36,464 bases of DNA from a virus (IMGVR_UViG_2645727593_000019), one strand, 5' to 3'. Shown: positions 1,063 to 10,861, counted from the stretch's first letter. Numbers and translations are program-made. Notes: generated by a model from the sequence alone, not told the origin.

Positions 1063-1404
1063 TCAGCCAACATTGCGGCCTGATCGGGGTGATTTTTGGG
1101 TAATACCGATTGAAACCTGATCGCCCTCCGACTGAATAGATCCATCAAGAGAGAGAGCCGGAGCAATCTGCCCGGCGACAGGTAGCGTCTTATCTTTTAT
1201 TAGCCACAGCATGTATTTTTCAAAGCGATCGACTTGCAGAACCGCCTCAACGATTTTTGCTCTAGCGTTCTTTTGCCCCGATTCGTAATTCCTTATGGTT
1301 GCCAAAGACAACCCAGTAATATCCGCAAACTGCTTTTGTGTTAACCCTTCCGCCTTACGTATCTGACGTAACTTTTTTGCATAGTCTATTGACAAGATAA
1401 CCAT
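1063..1404 (-). CDS. C: immunity repressor, P2 C-like
   Basis: Track ORF 1063..1458 trimmed to MVILSIDYAKK; HTH (LTQKQFADITGLSLATIRNYESG) and GQIAPAL motif as in P2 C; divergent from the early operon. Confidence 0.75.
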   Translation of the reverse strand: MVILSIDYAKKLRQIRKAEGLTQKQFADITGLSLATIRNYESGQKNARAKIVEAVLQVDRFEKYMLWLIKDKTLPVAGQIAPALSLDGSIQSEGDQVSIGITQKSPRSGRNVG

Positions 1405-1449
1405 TTGAGTATTAACCTCTCGCACAAAGATAACCTTTTGGTTATCTTT
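1389..1449 (+). promoter_or_regulatory. early promoter Pe with repressor operator repeats
   Basis: TTGACA (1389-1394), 15-nt spacer, TATTAA (1410-1415); 8-bp direct repeat AGATAACC at 1395-1402 and 1428-1435 flanks the -10; the second copy lies in the perfect palindrome AAAGATAACC-TTTT-GGTTATCTTT (1426-1449). Confidence 0.55.
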
Positions 1450-1508
1450 ACAAGCCAAAACAAACCATCACAAGGCGCGACAAGCGCACCAACGCAAGAG
1501 GATAACAA

Positions 1509-2030
1509 ATGCGGGACTTCATTGCCGATAAAGAGTTATCTGACCACCAACCACTTCAGGAAAGTGACGCACTCAGCGGATCCATTGATGCCGCCAACGA
1601 CGACGAACACGAAGAAAACAAGAAAAAGCGTTCCTACAAAAAAGGAGCGACTTTACGGCTGGATGGTCCGATCGCCGGGCTTTGCTCTCTGGAAAAAGGC
1701 GCGGCATATATTGGGCTAACAAAATCTGCACTGCGCGTAGCCATTCATCGCGGTCAAATGCCGGGACACAAGACGCGCACAAACCCGGAAGATGAAAACT
1801 CAGACGGAGTATGGTGGTTTAACGCCAAAGAGTGGGACAAGTTGGCTGATGAGCTACCAGAGCACGAGCCCCCAGAATGGCACAACTGGAAAAGTTACTG
1901 GACGTATGACCGCCAGAAAAGGAAGTTCTCTCCAGCTAATAAAGAAGACTGCCAGACCATTAACGGTAAGCGAGTTTATACAGGCAGAAGCTCAAAACTG
2001 GACCAACTCAGAAACAACAGAGGCAACTAA
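1509..2030 (+). CDS. first early-operon protein at the cox position, predicted HTH regulator (Cox/excisionase-like?)
   Basis: Strong SD AAGAGGA before ATG 1509; HTH-like segment AAYIGLTKSALRVAIHRG; position equals P2 cox, but at 173 aa it is longer than P2 Cox. Confidence 0.55.
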   Translation: MRDFIADKELSDHQPLQESDALSGSIDAANDDEHEENKKKRSYKKGATLRLDGPIAGLCSLEKGAAYIGLTKSALRVAIHRGQMPGHKTRTNPEDENSDGVWWFNAKEWDKLADELPEHEPPEWHNWKSYWTYDRQKRKFSPANKEDCQTINGKRVYTGRSSKLDQLRNNRGN

Positions 2031-2034
2031 TCGT

Positions 2035-2457
2035 ATGAAAACAAACACGCCAGATTTCACAATAACTATTTCAAAAAATGACCAACCATTAATTGATAAC
2101 CTGAAATACCTTGCGGAAAAACATAATAACGGACGAATTGCAATTAATTTACGACACATCACAGGAGTAACAATTGTAACCAGTTACTGGCATCTATATC
2201 TAATCGCTAAATCAGTACTTGAAAACAAAGATTCTGTTGTCAATGGAAGAGATATAGATACTCTTCCTGCACAAATCAAACCGATAGCCTATCAATTGCG
2301 TAATCGTTTTAAAAATGAAGGTGGGATTATATTTGACTTTCCCGCAGCTGTAGCCGTGAGCTTCTCTCGGGAGGATATACTTCACTCATTTCGTTTTGCT
2401 CTATCAGGTGACGAGACATTATGGCAGCTAGAAGATGCCGGGAGCAGCCCGGCATAA
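2035..2457 (+). CDS. hypothetical protein, AT-rich cargo
   Basis: Track ORF 1792..2457 trimmed to the internal ATG at 2035 just after the upstream stop; low GC compared with flanks. Confidence 0.45.
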   Translation: MKTNTPDFTITISKNDQPLIDNLKYLAEKHNNGRIAINLRHITGVTIVTSYWHLYLIAKSVLENKDSVVNGRDIDTLPAQIKPIAYQLRNRFKNEGGIIFDFPAAVAVSFSREDILHSFRFALSGDETLWQLEDAGSSPA

Positions 2458-2463
2458 ATCAAA

Positions 2464-2655
2464 TTAAAAATCAACCAGTTGTGTGACAGGTGGGTATTTA
2501 CGCTGAATTTTGTCAGTTACTAACGCCAGTAATATATGAATCTCTGCGTTTAATGCGTCTTTATCACCCGTCGTTTTTACCCTGGGAGGGTTAATGTTAT
2601 CCAGAGCAGCACTAAGTTCACTCAACAAATTAACAACTTTTTTATCTTCTGACAT
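2464..2655 (-). CDS. hypothetical small protein (63 aa)
   Basis: Minus-strand ORF with SD AAGGGG upstream; convergent with 2035..2457; AT-rich. Confidence 0.4.
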   Translation of the reverse strand: MSEDKKVVNLLSELSAALDNINPPRVKTTGDKDALNAEIHILLALVTDKIQRKYPPVTQLVDF

Positions 2656-2790
2656 GAAAACCCCTTAACAATTTAATTAAACATAAGCCAGGACCTGAAC
2701 CGGCCAGTCCAAGTCCTAGACACACAAAAAATACCACAAATCAATACAAGGTGACACGAGTACACCTTACCGAAGGTACAGAGTTTTAAT

Positions 2791-3141
2791 ATGAAACTAC
2801 AGCGCAATTATTCACAGCAGCGCTTCCGCAACGGTGCGGAACGCCATGCTAACCGTTTCGCTATCAGTGCATCACGTAGCAACTCTCGCTACAGCCTGAG
2901 CGAAACACACGCAACGCCGGATGGCTACCCAATAAAACAAATCGGCGAGCATACCTGGCTGATTGAGAAAGCTGGAATTGTGGTCCACAAATGCCCACGC
3001 AATCCGTTTACCGGAAACCGCATTTTTGCATTGAGCTGCGGCGACAATCAGTTCGGGCAGGATTTCACATTATACGAAGCACTTCGCACGGTTGATCGTC
3101 TGCTTCGCGGGCAAAGTTTTATTAAACAGGCTGATTTATAA
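2791..3141 (+). CDS. hypothetical early protein
   Basis: Track ORF, first gene of a tightly packed rightward cluster. Confidence 0.45.
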   Translation: MKLQRNYSQQRFRNGAERHANRFAISASRSNSRYSLSETHATPDGYPIKQIGEHTWLIEKAGIVVHKCPRNPFTGNRIFALSCGDNQFGQDFTLYEALRTVDRLLRGQSFIKQADL

Positions 3142-3150
3142 CAGGTGCGT

Positions 3151-3439
3151 TATGACCAAAGAGCATGCACAAGGTGTATTTATCCGTTTTATTGATTTTC
3201 GCGGTGAACTGTTATTACGTGCATCCGCTATTGACGGAGTGACTCCGGCGGGTAAAAACGGAGCCGACGAAGCCACTTACGTTTATCTGAACGGCACGCG
3301 ACTGCTTGTGGAACTTCCGTACCAGACCGTACGAGAAATCATTAGCGAAGCTGAAAAGGCACGCCAGGCTAATGGCGATGAACCCTATATCGAAATTATT
3401 TGTATGGATTCAGAAGCTGAAATACAGAAAGCAGATTAA
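3151..3439 (+). CDS. hypothetical early protein
   Basis: Track ORF 3092..3439 trimmed to ATG 3151 (MTKEHAQG). Confidence 0.45.
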
Positions 3440-3447
3440 AGGGCGTT

Positions 3448-3693
3448 GTGATGGGCAAAGAATATAAAACTCTCATTAACAAAGCACTTGAGCGTTTTTA
3501 TTTTCGCTTAAGTGCATCAGGCGCTCATGCTGAACGTGCGGCCCGTGACTCATTGACCAGAGCAATCCGAAGTCTGTATGACGTGGCTTTTTACGCTGAT
3601 GATCTGGATGCACTTAACGAACTTTCCGAGCTGATCTGTGCCGCAGAATGCGGGGAACATATTGAACCGTATAAGCTGGGGAATATCGCATGA
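3448..3693 (+). CDS. hypothetical early protein
   Basis: Track ORF; stop overlaps the next small ORF start (ATGA). Confidence 0.45.
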   Translation: MMGKEYKTLINKALERFYFRLSASGAHAERAARDSLTRAIRSLYDVAFYADDLDALNELSELICAAECGEHIEPYKLGNIA

Positions 3694-3803
3694 GTATATT
3701 TATCTCATGGCTTGTTCTGATTATTTCGGTGGCCTGCGCTATTGGGATTATGCGAATTATTCATTCAGTAAAAAAGATTGAGCGTTTTTTCACTGAAGAA
3801 TAA
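3690..3803 (+). CDS. putative 37-aa single-pass membrane peptide
   Basis: ATG 3690 overlapping the upstream stop; translation MSIFISWLVLIISVACAIGIMRIIHSVKKIERFFTEE has a hydrophobic core; below the ORF-track length cutoff. Confidence 0.3.
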   Translation: MSIFISWLVLIISVACAIGIMRIIHSVKKIERFFTEE

Positions 3804-3838
3804 CAGCACAAATAAAACACACGATTAAATAAGAAAAC

Positions 3839-4156
3839 ATGAAAACAATCCGCACTCGCGGAGGTATCCATATATATAAACACGAGGTTAGCATGCTCAG
3901 GACAAATCAAAAAATACTGAAGGATGCATATTTTGACAGGGGGCGAGATCTCGCAAAGCTTTGCGCCGCACTAAAAGAAATCAGTCAGTATTTCACTGAT
4001 ATTGAAGATGATATAGCTAACAAAGGTGCCAGTATTACATTAGCGAACAGAGCACATTTTATGGGCTTTAATGTTTTCACAGCCATAAGAACATTAAAAG
4101 AACAAAAAGAAGAAATAGAAAAGCTCAAATACAGACATAAAGTCAAGAGGGTGTAA
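3839..4156 (+). CDS. hypothetical protein, AT-rich
   Basis: Track ORF; first gene of a translationally coupled run (3839-5960) with overlapping stop/start codons. Confidence 0.5.
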   Translation: MKTIRTRGGIHIYKHEVSMLRTNQKILKDAYFDRGRDLAKLCAALKEISQYFTDIEDDIANKGASITLANRAHFMGFNVFTAIRTLKEQKEEIEKLKYRHKVKRV

Positions 4157-4359
4157 TGGCAATTAAGCATTTTCCTGTCGTTCGCTTCACCTCCAGAGAC
4201 CGCGAATACGAGGTCGACGAACGACTGATTACCACTATCGACAAACATCGTTCGGAAAAGGATGCACATCACATCTATCTCACTGACGGCACTTACTTCT
4301 GCGCCACGAATGTGGTGCGGGTGAACCTTATCCGACAGGTACAGGAGTCACGCAGATGA
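4156..4359 (+). CDS. hypothetical protein
   Basis: Track ORF; TAATG overlap with the upstream gene. Confidence 0.45.
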   Translation: MAIKHFPVVRFTSRDREYEVDERLITTIDKHRSEKDAHHIYLTDGTYFCATNVVRVNLIRQVQESRR

Positions 4360-4622
4360 CCATTCTGGACTACATCGCTACCCATCCGGGTTGTAGCGGC
4401 GGAGAAATCGCCGCAGCACTGAATACCCCAACCACAGCCATCAATGCTGAGTTACGCCGACTCTGGCGCGGCGGCTTAGTCATCAGAACAAACCGCAGCA
4501 CAGGTGGTCGCGCTCGCAAAGCAGGAGGCCAGGCTTCTTACCACGTAAATCCGATGCCGTTCGGGTGTAGCAATCCACTTACTCACATGTTTAACCTGCT
4601 ACTGAAGGAAGCCAGAGCATGA
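4356..4622 (+). CDS. putative winged-helix DNA-binding protein
   Basis: Track ORF; ATGA overlap; sequence IATHPGCSGGEIAAALNTPTTAINAELRRLWRGGLV resembles a MarR/wHTH recognition region. Confidence 0.5.
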   Translation: MTILDYIATHPGCSGGEIAAALNTPTTAINAELRRLWRGGLVIRTNRSTGGRARKAGGQASYHVNPMPFGCSNPLTHMFNLLLKEARA

Positions 4623-4918
4623 GCGCCATCAACCACCAGGAATTACGCGAACTGGCGACTGACCTGCAACGAATGGCAACGCATCAAAAATTACTGGCGT
4701 TTCGCGCAATGCTCTCGCCATCTGCCGTGCTGGCACTGCTGGATGAGCTGGAGCACGCCAGAACCATGGCTCCTGCCATTCGTCTGACGCTCCATCATGA
4801 AATCAAGGATTTTTGCGCGACGCTGGAGTCACCAGGTGAATCAGAAACGCCGGAAGCAATGCAGCAGGAGCTGCTGCAACGCATCGACAACGTTTTCGAT
4901 TTTTTCCTTAACCAGTAA
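4619..4918 (+). CDS. hypothetical protein
   Basis: Track ORF; ATGA overlap with the upstream gene. Confidence 0.5.
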   Translation: MSAINHQELRELATDLQRMATHQKLLAFRAMLSPSAVLALLDELEHARTMAPAIRLTLHHEIKDFCATLESPGESETPEAMQQELLQRIDNVFDFFLNQ

Positions 4919-4929
4919 AGGACCGCGAT

Positions 4930-5133
4930 ATGAACAAAAAGACCTGGTTTCGCGCATACATGTGGGCGCTGGTATGCGTCCTCGTCTCTCTCATTCTGTA
5001 TGCAGGACTACTCCCCCGAATGATTTCATCAGACAGCTCCTTCCTGGTATTGCTGGGAATTTTCATTGCCATGCTGTACCCGGCAGGCGTTGTTCGCCTT
5101 TTCAGTAAGTACATCAAGGAAATCAAACAATGA
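4930..5133 (+). CDS. small two-TM membrane protein (possible NfeD-like partner of the SPFH protein)
   Basis: Two hydrophobic stretches (WALVCVLVSLILYAGLL and FLVLLGIFIAMLYPAGVV); stop overlaps the start of the downstream SPFH gene. Confidence 0.5.
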   Translation: MNKKTWFRAYMWALVCVLVSLILYAGLLPRMISSDSSFLVLLGIFIAMLYPAGVVRLFSKYIKEIKQ

Positions 5134-5960
5134 AGAAATTCAGACTCTTTCAGATTCTCCCGCTTTTTGCCGCCATCCTGCTGGTTGGTTGCGATCGCGT
5201 TGAGCCAGGTAATGTGGGCATCAAAGTCAACAAACTGGGCGACGACAAAGGCGTCGGTGAAGTGGTTGGCGTTGGCCGCTACTGGACAGGCTGGAATACA
5301 GAGGTTTACATCTTCCCGACCTTCAAACAAATGAAGAGTTACGATGAGCCGTTCAACTTCCAGATGAGTGACGGCACAACCATCGGCTATCACATCGGCG
5401 TGGCCTACAAAGTTGATCCATCCAAAGTTACCACGGTGTTTCAGACCTACCGCAAAGGCGTGGACGACATTACCGACACTGACCTGCGCCAGAAGATCGC
5501 CGATGCACTCAACCGACTGGCCAGCAAAATGACCACCGATAAGTTTATCGACGGTGGTAAGTCTGAACTGCTGGATTCAGCACTTAAAGATATTCAGGAA
5601 GAGATGACCCCCATCGGTATTCAGGTCATGAGCCTCTCTTATGTCGGTAAACCGGAATATCCGCCAACCGTTATCGACAGCATTAACGCCAAAGTCACGG
5701 CAAACCAGAAAACCCTGCAACGCGAACAGGAAGTCAAGCAGCGCGAAGCAGAAGCCAACATGTTGCGCGCAGAAGCTGCCGGACAGGCCGATGCCATTCG
5801 CACAAAAGCCCAGGCTGAAGCCGACGCCATTCGTTTACGCGGCGAAGCTCTGCGCCAGAATCCCGGCGTTATGGAGCTGGAAGCAATCAACAAATGGAAC
5901 GGCACGCTGCCGCAATACATGACCAGTAACACCGCTGTTCCGTTCGTTCCCGTGAAGTAA
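5130..5960 (+). CDS. SPFH/band-7 (stomatin-prohibitin-like) lipoprotein
   Basis: Signal peptide with lipobox LLVGC; band-7-like core followed by an Ala/Glu/Gln/Arg-rich coiled-coil tail (REQEVKQREAEANMLRAEAAGQADAIRTKAQAEADAIRLRGEA). Confidence 0.7.
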   Translation: MKKFRLFQILPLFAAILLVGCDRVEPGNVGIKVNKLGDDKGVGEVVGVGRYWTGWNTEVYIFPTFKQMKSYDEPFNFQMSDGTTIGYHIGVAYKVDPSKVTTVFQTYRKGVDDITDTDLRQKIADALNRLASKMTTDKFIDGGKSELLDSALKDIQEEMTPIGIQVMSLSYVGKPEYPPTVIDSINAKVTANQKTLQREQEVKQREAEANMLRAEAAGQADAIRTKAQAEADAIRLRGEALRQNPGVMELEAINKWNGTLPQYMTSNTAVPFVPVK

Positions 5961-5966
5961 TGACAC

Positions 5967-5991
5967 CCGGCCAGTGCAAACCGCTGGCCGG
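5967..5991 (+). terminator. stem-loop after the SPFH gene (possible terminator)
   Basis: CCGGCCAG/CTGGCCGG 8-bp stem; the T-run starts only about 14 nt downstream. Confidence 0.3.
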
Positions 5992-6327
5992 AGCAGCATC
6001 AGGATTTTTTAGTATGCCGTTCTCACAAAAAAACCGCTTGCCATGCCGCAATCAGTCAGGTTACATTTCCGCTGCACCTCATAAAACGGGGGCCGGGATT
6101 GGAACCCCGCAGACTACAAGAGCGCACAACCGCGCCAGCGGTTTTTTTGTGCGTACTGTATTGCCACGTCTTTTTCGCACACGAATTATGGTGGGGCGTA
6201 CGGGGCCGATTTCGGTCGGGCCGGGATCTCTTGTAGCCGGTAGTTCCAACCCTGTACGTCTCACCACCCCGAGCTTGGAACCTCTGGATGGTGAGTTTTC
6301 ACAACTTACTACAAGAGGCCACATATC

Positions 6328-6558
6328 ATGGCAAACCGCAAACAGCACCGCGCTATCGCGGAGCGTCGTCACATCCAGACTGAAATCAACCGCAGACTTT
6401 CCCGCGCATTCCGCGTCGCTAAAATCATGCACATCAATATGCTGCATGAGCGTAGCTGCGAACTTTCAAACCTCTACTCATCCGCTGTTTTCAGCTATCT
6501 GGCGGATGATCTGCGCGAGCTTCAGCAGCTCATCCAGCAGCAAAACAAACTCCATTAA
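6328..6558 (+). CDS. hypothetical basic protein (76 aa)
   Basis: SD ACAAGAGG 9 nt before ATG 6328; the same SD motif precedes the 6631 gene. Confidence 0.45.
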   Translation: MANRKQHRAIAERRHIQTEINRRLSRAFRVAKIMHINMLHERSCELSNLYSSAVFSYLADDLRELQQLIQQQNKLH

Positions 6559-6630
6559 TTCCTGTTCCGGGCCTTTCCTGCACCTTGCGGCGGGAGGCCT
6601 TCGCACATCTGTAACAAGAGGATTGCCGCA

Positions 6631-6996
6631 ATGATTCTCGCCAACGACTTTCTTGAATACCTGCTCAACACAGAGCGTGATCTTGCCGTTCGCGTGCGTG
6701 AACGTTATGACATGTACCTGAAATACCTGCCTGTACCGCAGCTCGCTGACGGAAAGATTGTTATTGATGGTCGCTACATGATTGACAGCCACGAGGGAAA
6801 TTACAGGCTTTACCGCATTGAAGGTGGCACCCCGTACGTTATTGGCATTTACCAGCGCCCATCCTCTGCAATCGTCGATGTGATTGCCGACAGCATCCGC
6901 ATCACACATCGCCATGCCGACACAGAAGACACCGTGCTGGAAATTCAGCGGCTGGCTACAGTCTGCCGCGACACCCTGAATGGTATGACGAAGTAA
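6631..6996 (+). CDS. hypothetical protein immediately upstream of A
   Basis: Track ORF with SD AAGAGG. Confidence 0.5.
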   Translation: MILANDFLEYLLNTERDLAVRVRERYDMYLKYLPVPQLADGKIVIDGRYMIDSHEGNYRLYRIEGGTPYVIGIYQRPSSAIVDVIADSIRITHRHADTEDTVLEIQRLATVCRDTLNGMTK

Positions 6997-7002
6997 ATCA
7001 CT

Positions 7003-9825
7003 ATGACGGCAGAGTACATCAGGGACTGGCAACAACCGCGCCACGCAGTGGGGCGTGAAGGAACGGGGATCCCCGCTCCTGAATCCGCGCTTTCCTCCTG
7101 GCTGGATGCCTACCAGGCAGAGAACGAGCGCCGACAGGAAAAGGCTGATGCGGCGTTCTCCGCCACGCCGCTGGGCAACCTGATTAATAAAAGCCTGGAC
7201 GCACAGGAAAAACAGGACAAAACCATCACGCTGGCAGGAGACGCCAGAAGACAGGCACGCGGCGCGGTGGATGAAGCCATGGCCTCGCTGCGCCTGCTGC
7301 CGTCCTATCTGCGCGATCCGCTTATTCGCCACCTCTCCTTCCTGCGCAAAAAACAGGAAGTCGATCGCCGGAAAGGCAAAAAGAGCTGGCAGGCAGAACG
7401 CTATGCACGCGGAACCCTGCGCAAAATATTCGAACGTCTGGATCGCACTGACGGACACTGGCTGACACCGGGTTATCGCTCCCTTGCCGGACGCGAACGC
7501 CTGGACGATTTGCTTTACCTGCCGCAGCTCAACAAACACCAGATACAGACGCTGGCCACCATGACGGCGGCGATGTTCAGCAGCACCTTCGAAAAACTCT
7601 GCGATGGCTTTGGTGCGACTGATGGCGAGCTGACCATGGATGTAACGCTGAAGGCGTATCAGATGCTGGCCCGCATGGCGTTACACCTGCACGCCATGCC
7701 TCCGCATTATGACGCACTGACAACAGACAAAGGCCGGAGGAACGAACCAGACACGGAGCTGCTGCCGGGCGCAATCCTTCGCCTGACCTGTGCGGAATGG
7801 TGGAAACGCAAACTGTGGCTGTTACGTTGCGAGTGGAGAGAAGAACAACTCCGCGCCGCCTGTCTGGTTTCCAGAAAAACATCGCCCTATCTGAGCCAGG
7901 ATGCGTTAAGCGAGTTTCGCGCACAGCGCGAGAAAACACGCGATTTCCTGAAAAGTTTCATGCTGGAAAACGAAGACGGGTTCACGATTGATCTTGAGAC
8001 AGTGTATTACGCGGGAGTAAGTAACCCGGTTCACCGTAAGGCAGAAATGATGGCCACCATGAAGGGGCTGGAACTTCTGGCCGAAGCCCGTGGCGACAGA
8101 GCGGTGTTTCTGACTGTCACCTGCCCGTCAAAATACCACGCAACAACGGAGAACGGTCATCCGAATCCCAAATGGAACGGGGCCACTATGCGCGACTCCA
8201 GCGATTACCTGGTTAACTCGTTTTTTGCGGCGGTCCGCAAGAAACTGAACCGCGACGGCCTGCGCTGGTATGGCATCCGCACGGTGGAGCCTCACCATGA
8301 CGGCACCGTGCACTGGCATATGATGGTCTTTGCTCATCCGGAAGAAATCGACACCATTGTGTCCCACACCCGCGATATTGCCATTCAGGAAGATCGTCAC
8401 GAGCTGGGTGATGATATTACCCCACGCTTTAAGGCAGAGTACGTCGACGGCTCAAAAGGCACACCGACCAGCTACATCGCCACCTACATCGGAAAGAACC
8501 TGGACAGCCGCGCCGTGGATGGTATCGACCCGAAAACGGGCAAGCCACGCGTTGACCACGAAACCGGAAAATCAATGGCCGAGAGCGTGGAGCGCGCCAT
8601 CGGCTGGGCGCGCCTTCACCGGGTCCGCCAGTTCCAGTTCTTTGGCATCCCCTCCCGTCAGGTGTGGCGTGAACTGCGCCGCCTTGCCAGCCAGATGGCA
8701 CGCAACCCGGAAGGCCCGCAACGGCTGAAGGATGACGCAATGGATGCAGTGCTCGCTGCCGCTGATGCCGGGTGTTTTGCCTCCTACATTGAAAAACAGG
8801 GCGGCGTACTTGTTCCACGCAAAGACTACCTGATTCGCACCGCCTACGACCTCGCAGATGAGCTGAACGATTACGGCGAACAGAGCGTACAGATTTACGG
8901 GATCTGGTCACCACTCATCGGGGAGTCTTCCCGTGTGTGCACACATCCGGATAACTGGAAGCTGGTAAGACGTAAACCGGAAGCGGAAGACAGCGCCCGC
9001 GAAAATGGTTTTGACCTTCAGGGCGGCCCTGCCGCCCCTTGGACTCGTGGCAATAACTGTCCCCGTGTACAGGAAACAGGCAACAACGGGACAGAACAGC
9101 CGGAAGAACGGCCAGCACCGTGGCCGCAGCTTCCTGACGGCGTTGAAGTAAATGAATGGATGCGCTCACTGAAACGGCACGAACGCCGGGCGCTGATGCG
9201 TTCGCTTCGTGACAAACAGGCAAAAAACAGCAGCGATGAAATGCAGAACTGGACACAGAGCCGCAAACAGCAGCGGCCTTTGCCTGATAACCACGAGTTA
9301 CTCGCTAAAGAATGGCGGGAGTCTGCTGAATCTCTCGGCCTGCATATCGGTGAACAACAGATGCAGCACCTGTTACGGGGCGGCAGTCTGTACGTTGACG
9401 GCAGCATCATTGCACCGCAGGGATTTGAAATTGTACGCAAACCGGATACCCGCCCGGACAGCCGAATCACGCAGCTCTGGCAGCGTCTGAGCCGTAATCA
9501 TGGCGTAAGCAGCACGGAGATCCGCCATAACCCGGTCGCCAGCTATCTGGCACAGCTGGGGGCATCAGACCCTGAAGCCGCCGCACGCCTGGCATCCACA
9601 CTTCAGCAGGACCAGAACACCATGAAAACACCCGTTACCGTGCTTTCTGACATGCTGCGCGCCATCCGCGACGCAGAGCACGCACAGAGAATCAGTGAAA
9701 CCACTGAACGCGCCAGCCGCAAAGCAGACCTGCTGCGGGGTGGCCTGACCAGTGGAAACAAAAAACAGACAGAAACGGGACTCACGAATCCCGTAAATGA
9801 GCAAAAAACGCGCAGCGATATATGA
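7003..9825 (+). CDS. A: rolling-circle replication initiator, P2 A family (HUH endonuclease)
   Basis: HUH motif VHWHMMVFAH (about 8305-8335) and catalytic YxxxY pair SYIATYIGKN (about 8466-8498); position after the early operon; 940 aa with a long C-terminal extension. Confidence 0.9.
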   Translation: MTAEYIRDWQQPRHAVGREGTGIPAPESALSSWLDAYQAENERRQEKADAAFSATPLGNLINKSLDAQEKQDKTITLAGDARRQARGAVDEAMASLRLLPSYLRDPLIRHLSFLRKKQEVDRRKGKKSWQAERYARGTLRKIFERLDRTDGHWLTPGYRSLAGRERLDDLLYLPQLNKHQIQTLATMTAAMFSSTFEKLCDGFGATDGELTMDVTLKAYQMLARMALHLHAMPPHYDALTTDKGRRNEPDTELLPGAILRLTCAEWWKRKLWLLRCEWREEQLRAACLVSRKTSPYLSQDALSEFRAQREKTRDFLKSFMLENEDGFTIDLETVYYAGVSNPVHRKAEMMATMKGLELLAEARGDRAVFLTVTCPSKYHATTENGHPNPKWNGATMRDSSDYLVNSFFAAVRKKLNRDGLRWYGIRTVEPHHDGTVHWHMMVFAHPEEIDTIVSHTRDIAIQEDRHELGDDITPRFKAEYVDGSKGTPTSYIATYIGKNLDSRAVDGIDPKTGKPRVDHETGKSMAESVERAIGWARLHRVRQFQFFGIPSRQVWRELRRLASQMARNPEGPQRLKDDAMDAVLAAADAGCFASYIEKQGGVLVPRKDYLIRTAYDLADELNDYGEQSVQIYGIWSPLIGESSRVCTHPDNWKLVRRKPEAEDSARENGFDLQGGPAAPWTRGNNCPRVQETGNNGTEQPEERPAPWPQLPDGVEVNEWMRSLKRHERRALMRSLRDKQAKNSSDEMQNWTQSRKQQRPLPDNHELLAKEWRESAESLGLHIGEQQMQHLLRGGSLYVDGSIIAPQGFEIVRKPDTRPDSRITQLWQRLSRNHGVSSTEIRHNPVASYLAQLGASDPEAAARLASTLQQDQNTMKTPVTVLSDMLRAIRDAEHAQRISETTERASRKADLLRGGLTSGNKKQTETGLTNPVNEQKTRSDI

Positions 9826-9901: not shown

Positions 9902-10861
9902 ATGAAAATTTACATCGACGACGGCTCCACCAACATCAAGCTGGCATGGACTGAGAACGGCGAACGCCGCAACGCCATCAGCCCGAACAGCTTCAAGTCG
10001 GAATGGTCTGCGCCGTTCGGTGGCTCGCAGCCTGCTAACTACATGCTTGATGGCGTGCGCTATGGTTTTGATCCGGTCAGCGATCGCTTTGTCCAGACGA
10101 CCGACACGCAATACCAGTACAGCGATGTGAATGTCATTGCCATTCATCACGCGCTGGTCAAATCAGACATCACGCCACAGGAAGTGGATGTGGTTGTTAC
10201 CCTGCCACTGAGCGAATATTTCGACACAAACGCACAGCCGGACATGGCCAACATCAACCGCAAAAAAGCGAACGTCATGCGCCCGGTGGAGTACCAGAAC
10301 GGCGAAGCATTCACTATCCGTAACGTACGGGTTATGCCTGAATCCATTCCGGCTGGCTTTAAAGCACTGGCTGACATGAGTCCGTTTGAATCCCTGCTGA
10401 TTGTGGATTTGGGCGGAACCACGCTGGATGTGGCAAAGGTTCAGGGGCAACTGGCAGGTATCAGCCAGGTGTTTTGCGATCCACACGTAGGCGTTTCTCT
10501 TATGGCCGATGCCGTACTGTCGGTGATGGCCACTAACGGTATGCGCACCAGTCACCACATCGCCAATACCATTATCGAACATCGCCATAATGAAGCCTGG
10601 CTGCGCCAGCACATCCACAATGACGCGCATTACGCCAGCCTGATGGCGGTTATTCGTGAAAAGGAAGAAACACTGAAACAACGCGTGATCCGCGCGCTGG
10701 CGGTTTTTTCGGGTTACGGGCGGGTGATGGTTGTCGGTGGCGGGGCGGAGATTGTGGCACCCGCTATCCGCGAAGCCTGCGGAGTTAATGCGACTTTCAT
10801 CGCGGACGGGGTGCCACAGTTTGCTCTGGTTAATGGGCTGTACGCAATGGACAAGGAGTAA
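9902..10861 (+). CDS. parM: actin-like ATPase, ParM/StbA family
   Basis: N-terminus MKIYIDDGSTNIKLAW and motifs DLGGTTLD, VMPESIPAG, VVGGGAE match plasmid R1 ParM as I recall it. Confidence 0.85.
   Translation: MKIYIDDGSTNIKLAWTENGERRNAISPNSFKSEWSAPFGGSQPANYMLDGVRYGFDPVSDRFVQTTDTQYQYSDVNVIAIHHALVKSDITPQEVDVVVTLPLSEYFDTNAQPDMANINRKKANVMRPVEYQNGEAFTIRNVRVMPESIPAGFKALADMSPFESLLIVDLGGTTLDVAKVQGQLAGISQVFCDPHVGVSLMADAVLSVMATNGMRTSHHIANTIIEHRHNEAWLRQHIHNDAHYASLMAVIREKEETLKQRVIRALAVFSGYGRVMVVGGGAEIVAPAIREACGVNATFIADGVPQFALVNGLYAMDKE

Follow-up and report, generated by a model that had tools for sequence, protein, structure and literature searches.

A small two-transmembrane (2-TM) protein, the gene for which overlaps that of a Band_7 lipoprotein of ~276 amino acids (aa), is encoded both by phage N4 (gp19-gp20) and by Escherichia phage P88 (gp11-gp12); the two proteins fall into PHROG 1130 and PHROG 200, respectively. 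Here we describe the same phage module at the end of a run of six genes (positions 3839-5991) in IMGVR_UViG_2645727593_000019, a viral sequence of 36,464 nucleotides (nt) that we refer to in its entirety as the window. The SPFH (Band_7) protein of the window is 98.9% identical to that of P88 and 63% identical to that of N4, and all three share the partner loop motif and the C-terminal KWxG motif described below. N4 differs in that it is virulent, has Tyr rather than Asp at position +2 and carries a partner that is merely 25% identical. The window is a P88-like Escherichia coli prophage (Xuanwuvirus, Peduoviridae, P2 family). The region is 93% identical to P88, and prophages of human E. coli isolates, including O6:H16 strains, match it at 99.7% identity. 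The genes and their domains are already catalogued and annotated in public databases: in relatives, gene 6 appears as 'SPFH domain-containing protein' or 'lipoprotein', gene 5 as 'membrane protein' and gene 3 as 'MarR family transcriptional regulator', which is also its PGAP name. To this we add four points: the SPFH gene is strictly coupled to its own 2-TM partner, which is not NfeD; the two proteins are naturally fused in some family members; a recombination joint is located at the lipobox; and the early operon has a slot structure. Judged from sequence, the last two genes form a conserved, translationally coupled functional pair.

Several other described systems resemble this pair in part. 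In the SPFH-NfeD operons (E. coli QmcA-YbbJ, 8z5g; YqiK-YqiJ; Pyrococcus stomatin PH1511-PH1510), an SPFH gene is likewise co-transcribed with a dedicated small membrane-protein gene, partner and SPFH are fused in some lineages, and the fold of gene 6 matches that of QmcA. However, those partners contain an NfeD domain with an oligosaccharide/oligonucleotide-binding (OB) fold, which the 67-aa partner of the window lacks; QmcA is cytoplasmic, whereas the SPFH protein studied here is predicted to be lipid-anchored and to face the periplasm; and the module is phage-borne and mobile. The HflK/HflC-FtsH complexes (PDB 7vhp, 7vhq, 7wi3, 9cz2) resemble gene 6 in combining an SPFH core with a long coiled-coil helix; their SPFH domain is on the periplasmic side of the inner membrane, as would be the case here. 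Identity is only 17-18%, HflK and HflC form a heteropair where we find one gene, and gene 6 is ~140 residues shorter than HflK, is anchored through a lipid where they use an N-terminal TM helix and misses the equivalog cut-offs by >100 bits. In Kayvirus (phage K/MSA6), also virulent, the small membrane protein MbpV is encoded upstream of, and overlapping, the SPFH gene mbpS, the product of which is 25% identical to the window SPFH protein across 95% of its length. The differences are a Gram-positive host, a signal-anchor without lipobox in MbpS, a single TM segment with a charged tail in MbpV and a location within a lysis/cell-wall module; the published idea is that MbpV-MbpS help with Tgl secretion (PMC7150955).

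The two genes of the pair are as follows.

4930..5133, plus strand: gene 5, predicted 67-aa two-TM hairpin inner-membrane protein (phrog_1130 'membrane protein', E 1.3e-22; hydropathy)
5130..5960, plus strand: gene 6, 276-aa SPFH/Band-7 lipoprotein (Band_7; phrog_200 'lipoprotein', E 6e-112; AlphaFold2 (AF2) model; Foldseek)

Gene 6 had been proposed, from the DNA alone, to encode a lipoprotein with a band-7 core and a coiled-coil tail, and we recovered all three features. Pfam Band_7 (PF01145) matches residues 23-209 over the full profile (positions 2-176; E 6.5e-31; 108.2 bits against a cut-off of 23.6). The protein begins MKKFRLFQILPLFAAILLVGC, followed by DR, with the lipobox L-V-G-C and Cys21. 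Its charged n-region, hydrophobic h-region and [LVI][ASTVI][GAS]C pattern are those of a predicted signal peptidase II substrate, with a signal peptide at residues 1-20 and Asp at +2, and the lipobox Cys is invariant in the SPFH alignment. Asp at +2 is the classical inner-membrane retention signal of E. coli (the '+2 rule'). A conserved NKWxGxLP...PF motif lies at the C-terminus. The AF2 model consists of strands at 28-95, helices at 111-162, a strand at 164-176 and a single long helix at 179-243, giving an SPFH core followed by the tail; confidence in the monomer is moderate (predicted local distance difference test, pLDDT, 69) and is low for the C-terminal 25 residues, as expected for an assembly-dependent region. 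Full-length Foldseek matches at probability 1.00 comprise HflC/K (7vhq, E 7e-13), QmcA (8z5g, QmcA-YbbJ, E 5e-8), erlin, prohibitin, stomatin, flotillin and vault, all of which are ring or cage formers. No match was found among the PADLOC-DB v2 defence models. Two minus-strand open reading frames (ORFs) at the SPFH gene (4908-5393 and 5639-5932) were without support and were disregarded. GenBank records of phiP27 and of Stx2 phages name the SPFH gene 'serine protease' or 'putative serine protease', a label without support from its domain content.

By sequence, the nearest solved chain is HflK (7vhq, E 1e-4). We considered and rejected an HflK/C orthologue: TIGR01932 (hflC) scores 25.7 against 134.4 bits and TIGR01933 (hflK) 23.4 against 159.4, the gene is single, and a lipobox takes the place of the TM anchor. 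The protein might still act as an HflK/C mimic, its ring enclosing or competing for FtsH or another inner-membrane protease and shifting the turnover of phage and host proteins (for example, of CII-type lysogeny factors), which would tune the choice between lysis and lysogeny or stabilise phage proteins. The closest solved relatives, by sequence as well as fold, are HflK/HflC in FtsH complexes, the predicted orientation (periplasmic SPFH, inner membrane) is that of HflK/C and unlike that of cytoplasmic QmcA, and early expression would suit a decision-stage function of temperate phages. Yet the likeness is remote (E 1e-4; NCBIfam 23-26 bits against cut-offs of 134-159), a single lipid-anchored SPFH protein stands where HflK/HflC form a heteropair with N-terminal TM helices, contact with FtsH is hypothetical, and the module is equally present in virulent phages, which make no lysogeny decision. 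We consider such mimicry improbable.

Gene 5 encodes the expected 67-aa two-TM protein, with hydrophobic segments at approximately residues 6-28 and 38-58, a short connecting loop (PRMISSDSS) and positively charged ends. Alignment of partners revealed a common motif between the TM segments, (L/V)(L/V)Px(M/L)(I/V)S(S/A)xD, also given as LLPxM(I/V)SSxD. There is no Pfam family match, and the only match in PADLOC-DB v2 is non-significant (E 0.0078 over 21 residues). The arrangement had been likened to bacterial NfeD-SPFH operons. The likeness to SPFH-partner operons holds, as the two genes are co-oriented and overlap by 4 nt (ATGA) in the window. The identity of the partner does not: neither the window protein nor six diverse homologues matched NfeD (PF01957) even at E<=1, and because 67 residues are also too few for the OB-fold domain, we reject it.

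The coupling is widely conserved. A tblastn search with the SPFH protein matched 798 of 50,697 phage records (~1.6% of sequenced phage genomes), ranging over virulent phages (N4-like, Mydovirus, Kayvirus and jumbo phages), crAss-like phages, Lak phages and haloarchaeal viruses. In the proteobacterial phages inspected, a small hydrophobic ORF lies directly upstream of the SPFH gene and usually overlaps its start, as in N4 gp19-gp20, the N4-like phages SPSP and Fifi051, the P1-like Ro157c2YLVW, Pseudomonas phage Hali and Burkholderia phiE125 (gp44-gp43). In phiP27 (NC_003356) the partner is an unannotated 62-aa two-TM ORF (3762-3950) with an ATGA overlap at the start of the SPFH lipoprotein L05. 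The exceptions are Mydovirus KNP2, where the hydrophobic gene is two genes upstream, and Pseudomonas phage Clew-1, where a 1-TM ORF is found 105 nt upstream. Within IMG/VR, four scans (one with a family-alignment query, which gave close relatives only, and three with divergent queries) yielded 218 analysable loci, and the partner is present in 216; both exceptions are truncated contigs. Searching from the partner side gave a corresponding result: a profile of seven partners retrieved 125 proteins, none with a Pfam domain, and each of the seven genomic places looked up for three distant partners has a 275-aa Band_7 gene next, with a 4-nt overlap.

An exhaustive HMMER search returned 223 clusters (50% identity) at E<=1e-30, and the 140 full-length sequences among the best 150 of these matches were used as family representatives. 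A lipobox-like motif is found in at least 107 of the 140 and the C-terminal KWxG motif in 113. Approximately 19 (~14%) are natural fusions of partner and SPFH protein, in the order TM1, loop motif, TM2, third hydrophobic segment, lipobox Cys, SPFH. This order is consistent with an inner-membrane hairpin of N-in/C-in topology that leaves the SPFH domain in the periplasm, and the fusions are the strongest evidence suggesting that both proteins act together in one membrane. Fusion proteins of 322-392 aa include P0247, P0253, P0258, P0259, P0262, P0268, P0272, P0273, P0287, P0290, P0294, P0300, P0321, P0334, P0347 and P0390.

The pair has also been considered as an envelope-integrity or lysis-timing device, in which the scaffold would stabilise the energised inner membrane, or sequester holin- or spanin-type proteins, keeping lysis from coming too early and prolonging the productive period. 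N4, a carrier of the pair, shows strongly delayed lysis, and two of seven partner sequences match the holin family PF07332 faintly (best E 0.038). In Kayvirus, the analogous mbpV-mbpS genes are located between the endolysin gene lysK and tgl, and MbpV has been likened to holins (PMC7150955). However, the PF07332 matches lack significance, the Kayvirus partner, with its single TM segment, is not a demonstrable homologue, and in the window, lambdoid and P1-like contexts the pair is distant from the lysis genes, and early rather than late. We regard such a role as quite improbable.

Comparison of the window by blastn with P88, vB_EcoM-705R2, P884B11 and Citrobacter phage Shae_phiSM showed conserved blocks at 3600-3867, 4144-4918 and 6024-7100 across these four Xuanwuviruses, separated by two insertions.

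3868..4143, no strand assigned: insertion 1 (gene 1), variable slot 1 (blastn breakpoints against relatives)
4919..6023, no strand assigned: insertion 2, 1105-bp SPFH cassette (genes 5 and 6 plus hairpin), variable slot 2 (breakpoints 4918/6024)
5967..5991, plus strand: GC-rich 10-bp hairpin, 3' end of cassette (folding energy -24 kcal/mol; z -2.8)

P88 and P884B11 lack insertion 1; 705R2 and Shae_phiSM have a 136-aa gene in its place that is unrelated to it. Slot 2 lies between the Ead-like gene 4 and the isrK/C4 RNA region. In 705R2 and P884B11 it is an empty slot of ~18 bp; in Shae_phiSM it is filled by a gene for a DNA-binding protein of 183 aa. The hairpin has no adjacent U-tract and was not called by the terminator scan; it is not a canonical terminator. 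We determined slot-2 occupancy by searching 5,426 complete E. coli genomes with the joined flanks. The backbone was present in 1,431, and in an evenly spread sample of 60 of these records the slot is mostly empty (span 2,292 nt), with the SPFH cassette in 6 and other cargo in 1. Roughly 10% of related E. coli prophages thus carry the SPFH pair, which is accessory and dispensable. The original prediction would have been undermined by a lack of profile support for the SPFH domain or by conservation of the operon as core of all P2-like phages with a known role in replication; the profile support is present, and the pair, like gene 1, is missing from P2 and from most P88-like prophages. Between cox and A, P2 has only orf78, B and orf80-83, so that, as had been stated, it contains nothing similar there.

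The boundaries of DNA homology point to a finer exchange within the cassette. Homology to phiP27/Stx2 phages and to P1-like plasmids begins at 5187-5190, at about the lipobox Cys codon, and ends at the stop (5960) in the P1-like plasmids and at ~5926 in phiP27. The mature SPFH parts are 92% identical, compared with 23-45% for the partners, indicating that partner plus signal peptide and the mature scaffold have been exchanged as separate segments.

The four genes preceding the pair are listed below.

3839..4156, plus strand: gene 1, 105 aa, function unassigned (phrog_21900, E 2.9e-71, sole match; adenine/thymine (AT)-rich cargo, variable slot 1)
4156..4359, plus strand: gene 2, 67 aa, conserved Xuanwuvirus backbone (phrog_3459, E 7.5e-45; DNA identity 88-94% in relatives)
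4356..4622, plus strand: gene 3, 88 aa, MarR-type winged helix-turn-helix (wHTH) protein, backbone (MarR_2, HTH_24, phrog_1687)
4619..4918, plus strand: gene 4, 99 aa, backbone, conserved in relatives (phrog_4144, E 3.6e-61)

In profile searches, genes 1 and 2 match only PHROGs of unassigned function. Gene 1 has no match in Pfam, NCBIfam, PADLOC or PDB, and PDB sequence searches with genes 1, 2 and 4 gave chance-level matches only. A wHTH protein had been noticed among these genes, and gene 3 indeed scores above both Pfam cut-offs (MarR_2, 31.4 bits, cut-off 27; HTH_24, 22.7 bits, cut-off 21.9). The N-terminus of gene 4 has a weak likeness to Ead_Ea22 (21.6 bits, under the cut-off of 27). A single profile, phrog_19053 (246 residues), spans gene 2 (profile positions 84-134) and gene 3 (162-243), that is, 4156-4622; since one profile covers both, genes 2 and 3 exist as a fusion in other phages and probably act together. 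Genes 2-4 are kept within Xuanwuvirus and are not found in P2.

All six plus-strand ORFs are present where the original prediction placed them; its description of a translationally coupled six-gene operon needs revision. Stop and start codons overlap at four of the five junctions (TAATG between genes 1 and 2; ATGA between genes 2 and 3, 3 and 4, and 5 and 6). Genes 4 and 5 are separated by an 11-nt spacer with the Shine-Dalgarno sequence AAAGGA. Overlaps of this kind are commonplace in phage operons and carry no signal by themselves. Nor does a unit start at 3839: four tightly packed plus-strand genes (2791-3803) lie upstream, with a gap of 35 nt and no predicted promoter. The gene order is int, C, cox, (...), DUF4761, a hypothetical gene, DUF4754, a 37-aa membrane protein, the 3839-5991 region, the RNA genes, a 76-aa 'derepression protein', ORF121 and the replication endonuclease A. 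The region therefore belongs to the long operon of early lytic genes that runs from cox to A. Of the first four genes, all of which had been called AT-rich, this applies to gene 1 alone (GC 37%); the GC content of genes 2-4 is 50-55%, where the window as a whole averages 53%. Nor do the six genes make up one evolutionary or functional unit: genes 2-4 belong to the Xuanwuvirus backbone, whereas gene 1 and the pair were inserted independently. Three layers may be distinguished: the backbone (genes 2-4), an AT-rich single-gene insertion (gene 1) and a 1.1-kb mobile cassette (4919-6023).

The same operon has a third variable slot at 1792-2720, between cox and the DUF4761 gene, where the window has extra DNA relative to P88 and shares its insertion with 705R2. 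This DNA contains a plus-strand ORF, a 63-aa minus-strand ORF (2464-2655) and a hairpin with a 14-bp stem (2688-2719). Next after the replication endonuclease A, at 9902-10861 (plus strand), is a gene encoding, according to the annotation of P88 and of relatives in E. coli, a plasmid segregation protein of the ParM type, an unusual cargo for an integrating P2-family phage.

The context of the pair bears on when it would be expressed. In the window, it is on the same strand as cox and A, and a crude consensus search predicted no sigma-70-like promoter before gene 1 (3839) or gene 5 (4930). In P1-like phages, the pair is located between dmt/tRNAs and ban, where canonical P1 has the C1-controlled ban operon; in lambdoid prophages, it is located between a CI-like repressor and xis/int. 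Promoter scans upstream of the pair in phiP27, phiE125 and a P1-like phage were uninformative. Virulent phages bearing the pair include N4, N4-like phages and Mydovirus, with the analogous mbpV-mbpS in Kayvirus, and the pair of N4 adjoins a gene annotated as superinfection exclusion. The lack of a predicted promoter, the position in a repressor-controlled early operon and the occurrence in virulent phages suggest that the pair functions during lytic growth rather than as a prophage-expressed defence.

The latter possibility, put forward in the original prediction, would have the pair transcribed in the lysogen, excluding other phages or aborting their infection as a lysogenic-conversion moron. 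As in a moron, the pair is inserted between genes that are adjacent in relatives (4918/6024; the ~18-bp slot in 705R2 and P884B11). It is accessory cargo in a variable slot and has spread by recombination among temperate phages, the PHROG category of the partner is 'moron, auxiliary metabolic gene and host takeover', and its lambdoid location is the region of sieB- and rex-type genes. Set against this are the missing upstream promoter prediction and the spacer of just 11 nt to the preceding early gene, the lack of any PADLOC model match and the fact that the module is common in obligately lytic phages, where protection of a lysogen is impossible. We find this explanation decidedly improbable. 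A known defence system was likewise rejected, as there was no significant PADLOC match and the idea that a named defence system contains SPFH was not borne out.

Overall, with somewhat better than even confidence, we favour an early-lytic 2-TM + SPFH module that conditions the envelope of the infected cell, preferably for exclusion. The product of gene 5 would be an N-in/C-in two-helix protein, with its short conserved periplasmic loop as the sole exposed part. The product of gene 6 would be lipid-anchored and face the periplasm, with Asp at +2 and the fusions making retention in the inner membrane likely. Homology to HflK/C, QmcA-YbbJ, prohibitin, erlin and stomatin leads us to expect that the SPFH protein oligomerises into a ring or cage that would fence off a patch of inner membrane, for which the 2-TM protein could serve as integral-membrane adaptor or client. 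The module would be made alongside the early lytic genes, and not as a moron of the prophage state. The inner membrane might thereby become refractory to genome entry, or damage, by a secondary phage, in an exclusion resembling that of T4 Imm and Sp. T4 Imm and Sp, P22 SieA, and T5 Llp and phi80 Cor are small phage-encoded envelope exclusion proteins (inner-membrane factors and periplasmic or lipoprotein ones) that are dispensable for growth, Imm and Sp being made early in lytic infection. They would be functional analogues, with no known sequence or fold relation to the pair, and none is known to have an SPFH domain.

Several points weigh against this interpretation. Literature searches turned up no experiment on a member of this subfamily, no functional study linking SPFH proteins with prophages, superinfection exclusion or anti-phage activity, and nothing on N4 gp19/gp20. 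Ring formation, retention and topology are features that we infer, and the monomer model is of moderate quality (pLDDT 69). The +2 residue varies in the family, T and S being the commonest after the lipobox-like Cys of the representatives, and inner-membrane retention may thus not be general. A weak or non-sigma-70 promoter, missed by the crude consensus scan, could drive expression in the prophage state; in phiE125, where the gene ahead of the pair is divergent, the pair must have a promoter of its own, and annotated terminators bracket the pair in the N4-like phage SPSP. The exclusion role, although favoured, draws on the analogy to T4 Imm/Sp and on one neighbouring gene annotation in N4. 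A 2026 paper calls the reason for phage carriage unclear (PMC13239085). Published ideas otherwise comprise only the help with Tgl secretion in Kayvirus (PMC7150955) and a part in virulence for a prophage SPFH protein of Pasteurella (PMC9872710).

Alternatively, the lipoprotein could be directed at the animal host, reaching the outer membrane or vesicles and acting as a TLR1/2 (Toll-like receptor) agonist or virulence factor, from which the prophage would gain via lysogenic conversion. A possible counterpart, PM0222 of Pasteurella multocida, an HflK/C-like SPFH protein of a prophage island, is reported to be secreted in vesicles, to signal via TLR1/2 and to contribute to virulence (PMC9872710). 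E. coli strains of human origin, O6:H16 strains among them, provide the nearest matches to our region. Asp at +2 and the TM-hairpin fusions, however, favour residence in the inner membrane, no independent promoter is predicted, and the module is also found in lytic phages and in phages of soil, plant and environmental bacteria. We view a host-directed role as very improbable indeed.

Directly downstream of the cassette, in a stretch kept in all Xuanwuviruses compared, two RNA genes were identified.

6074-6148, plus strand: isrK Hfq-binding small RNA (Rfam 67.4 bits, cut-off 50)
6184-6271, plus strand: C4 antisense RNA (Rfam 79.2 bits, cut-off 45; promoter-like site 6161-6189)

A promoter-like site (6038-6067) precedes isrK, which contains an intrinsic terminator (6128-6143). 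Together, isrK and C4 look like an RNA immunity module of the P1 c4 / P4 CI type in a P2-family phage. Read-through from the SPFH gene would reach the isrK terminator, and the early transcript may therefore end about there, matching the earlier placing of the operon end. Just past the C4 RNA, a 76-aa ORF (6328-6558, plus strand), 89% identical to the P88 gp14 'derepression protein', is placed where modules of the c4-icd-ant type have their antirepressor-type gene. A 224-aa ORF (5960-6634, plus strand) was considered as a seventh gene and rejected: it crosses the isrK and C4 RNA genes, overlaps the 76-aa gene in another frame and has a low-complexity translation. It is probably a miscall over non-coding RNA; its 205-aa counterpart in relatives is annotated 'transcriptional regulator' or 'ash family protein'.

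In canonical P1 (NC_005856, 11349-13009), the tRNA-ban slot holds plp-upl-tciABC, and the same slot in P1-like phages (1370-3624 in one of them) and in ~90-kb plasmids holds the 2-TM + SPFH pair instead. The slot is a cargo hotspot within the C1-controlled ban operon. P1 plp/upl were considered as the same pair and rejected: canonical plp is a 125-aa gene on the opposite strand, and only P1-like variants carry the pair.

A broader view extends the favoured early-lytic module to a near-universal and hitherto unrecognised class of phage 'membrane cages', in which a periplasm-facing SPFH nanodomain would be built early by many lineages to shield the inner membrane. The lineages would be N4, P1-like, P2-like and lambdoid phages, with analogues in Kayvirus and jumbo phages. 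Such a shield might keep out the genomes of competing phages or counter abortive-infection effectors that disrupt membranes. Specificity would come from the 2-TM partner, which evolves fast and recombines, and the conserved SPFH ring would act as scaffold. We think this generalisation unlikely, if conceivable.

For the window itself, the outcome is mostly clarifying: the 'six-gene operon' is a stretch of backbone with two unrelated cargo insertions. More generally, a role in exclusion, envelope protection or protease control would be assigned to a frequent pair of 'hypothetical membrane protein' and 'lipoprotein' genes. SPFH proteins (HflK/C, prohibitin, stomatin, flotillin and erlin) build membrane cages, the clients and purposes of which are still debated, and a compact, dispensable and mobile phage version made of one SPFH lipoprotein and one 67-aa adaptor, including that of N4, would be an easy genetic and structural handle on cage function.

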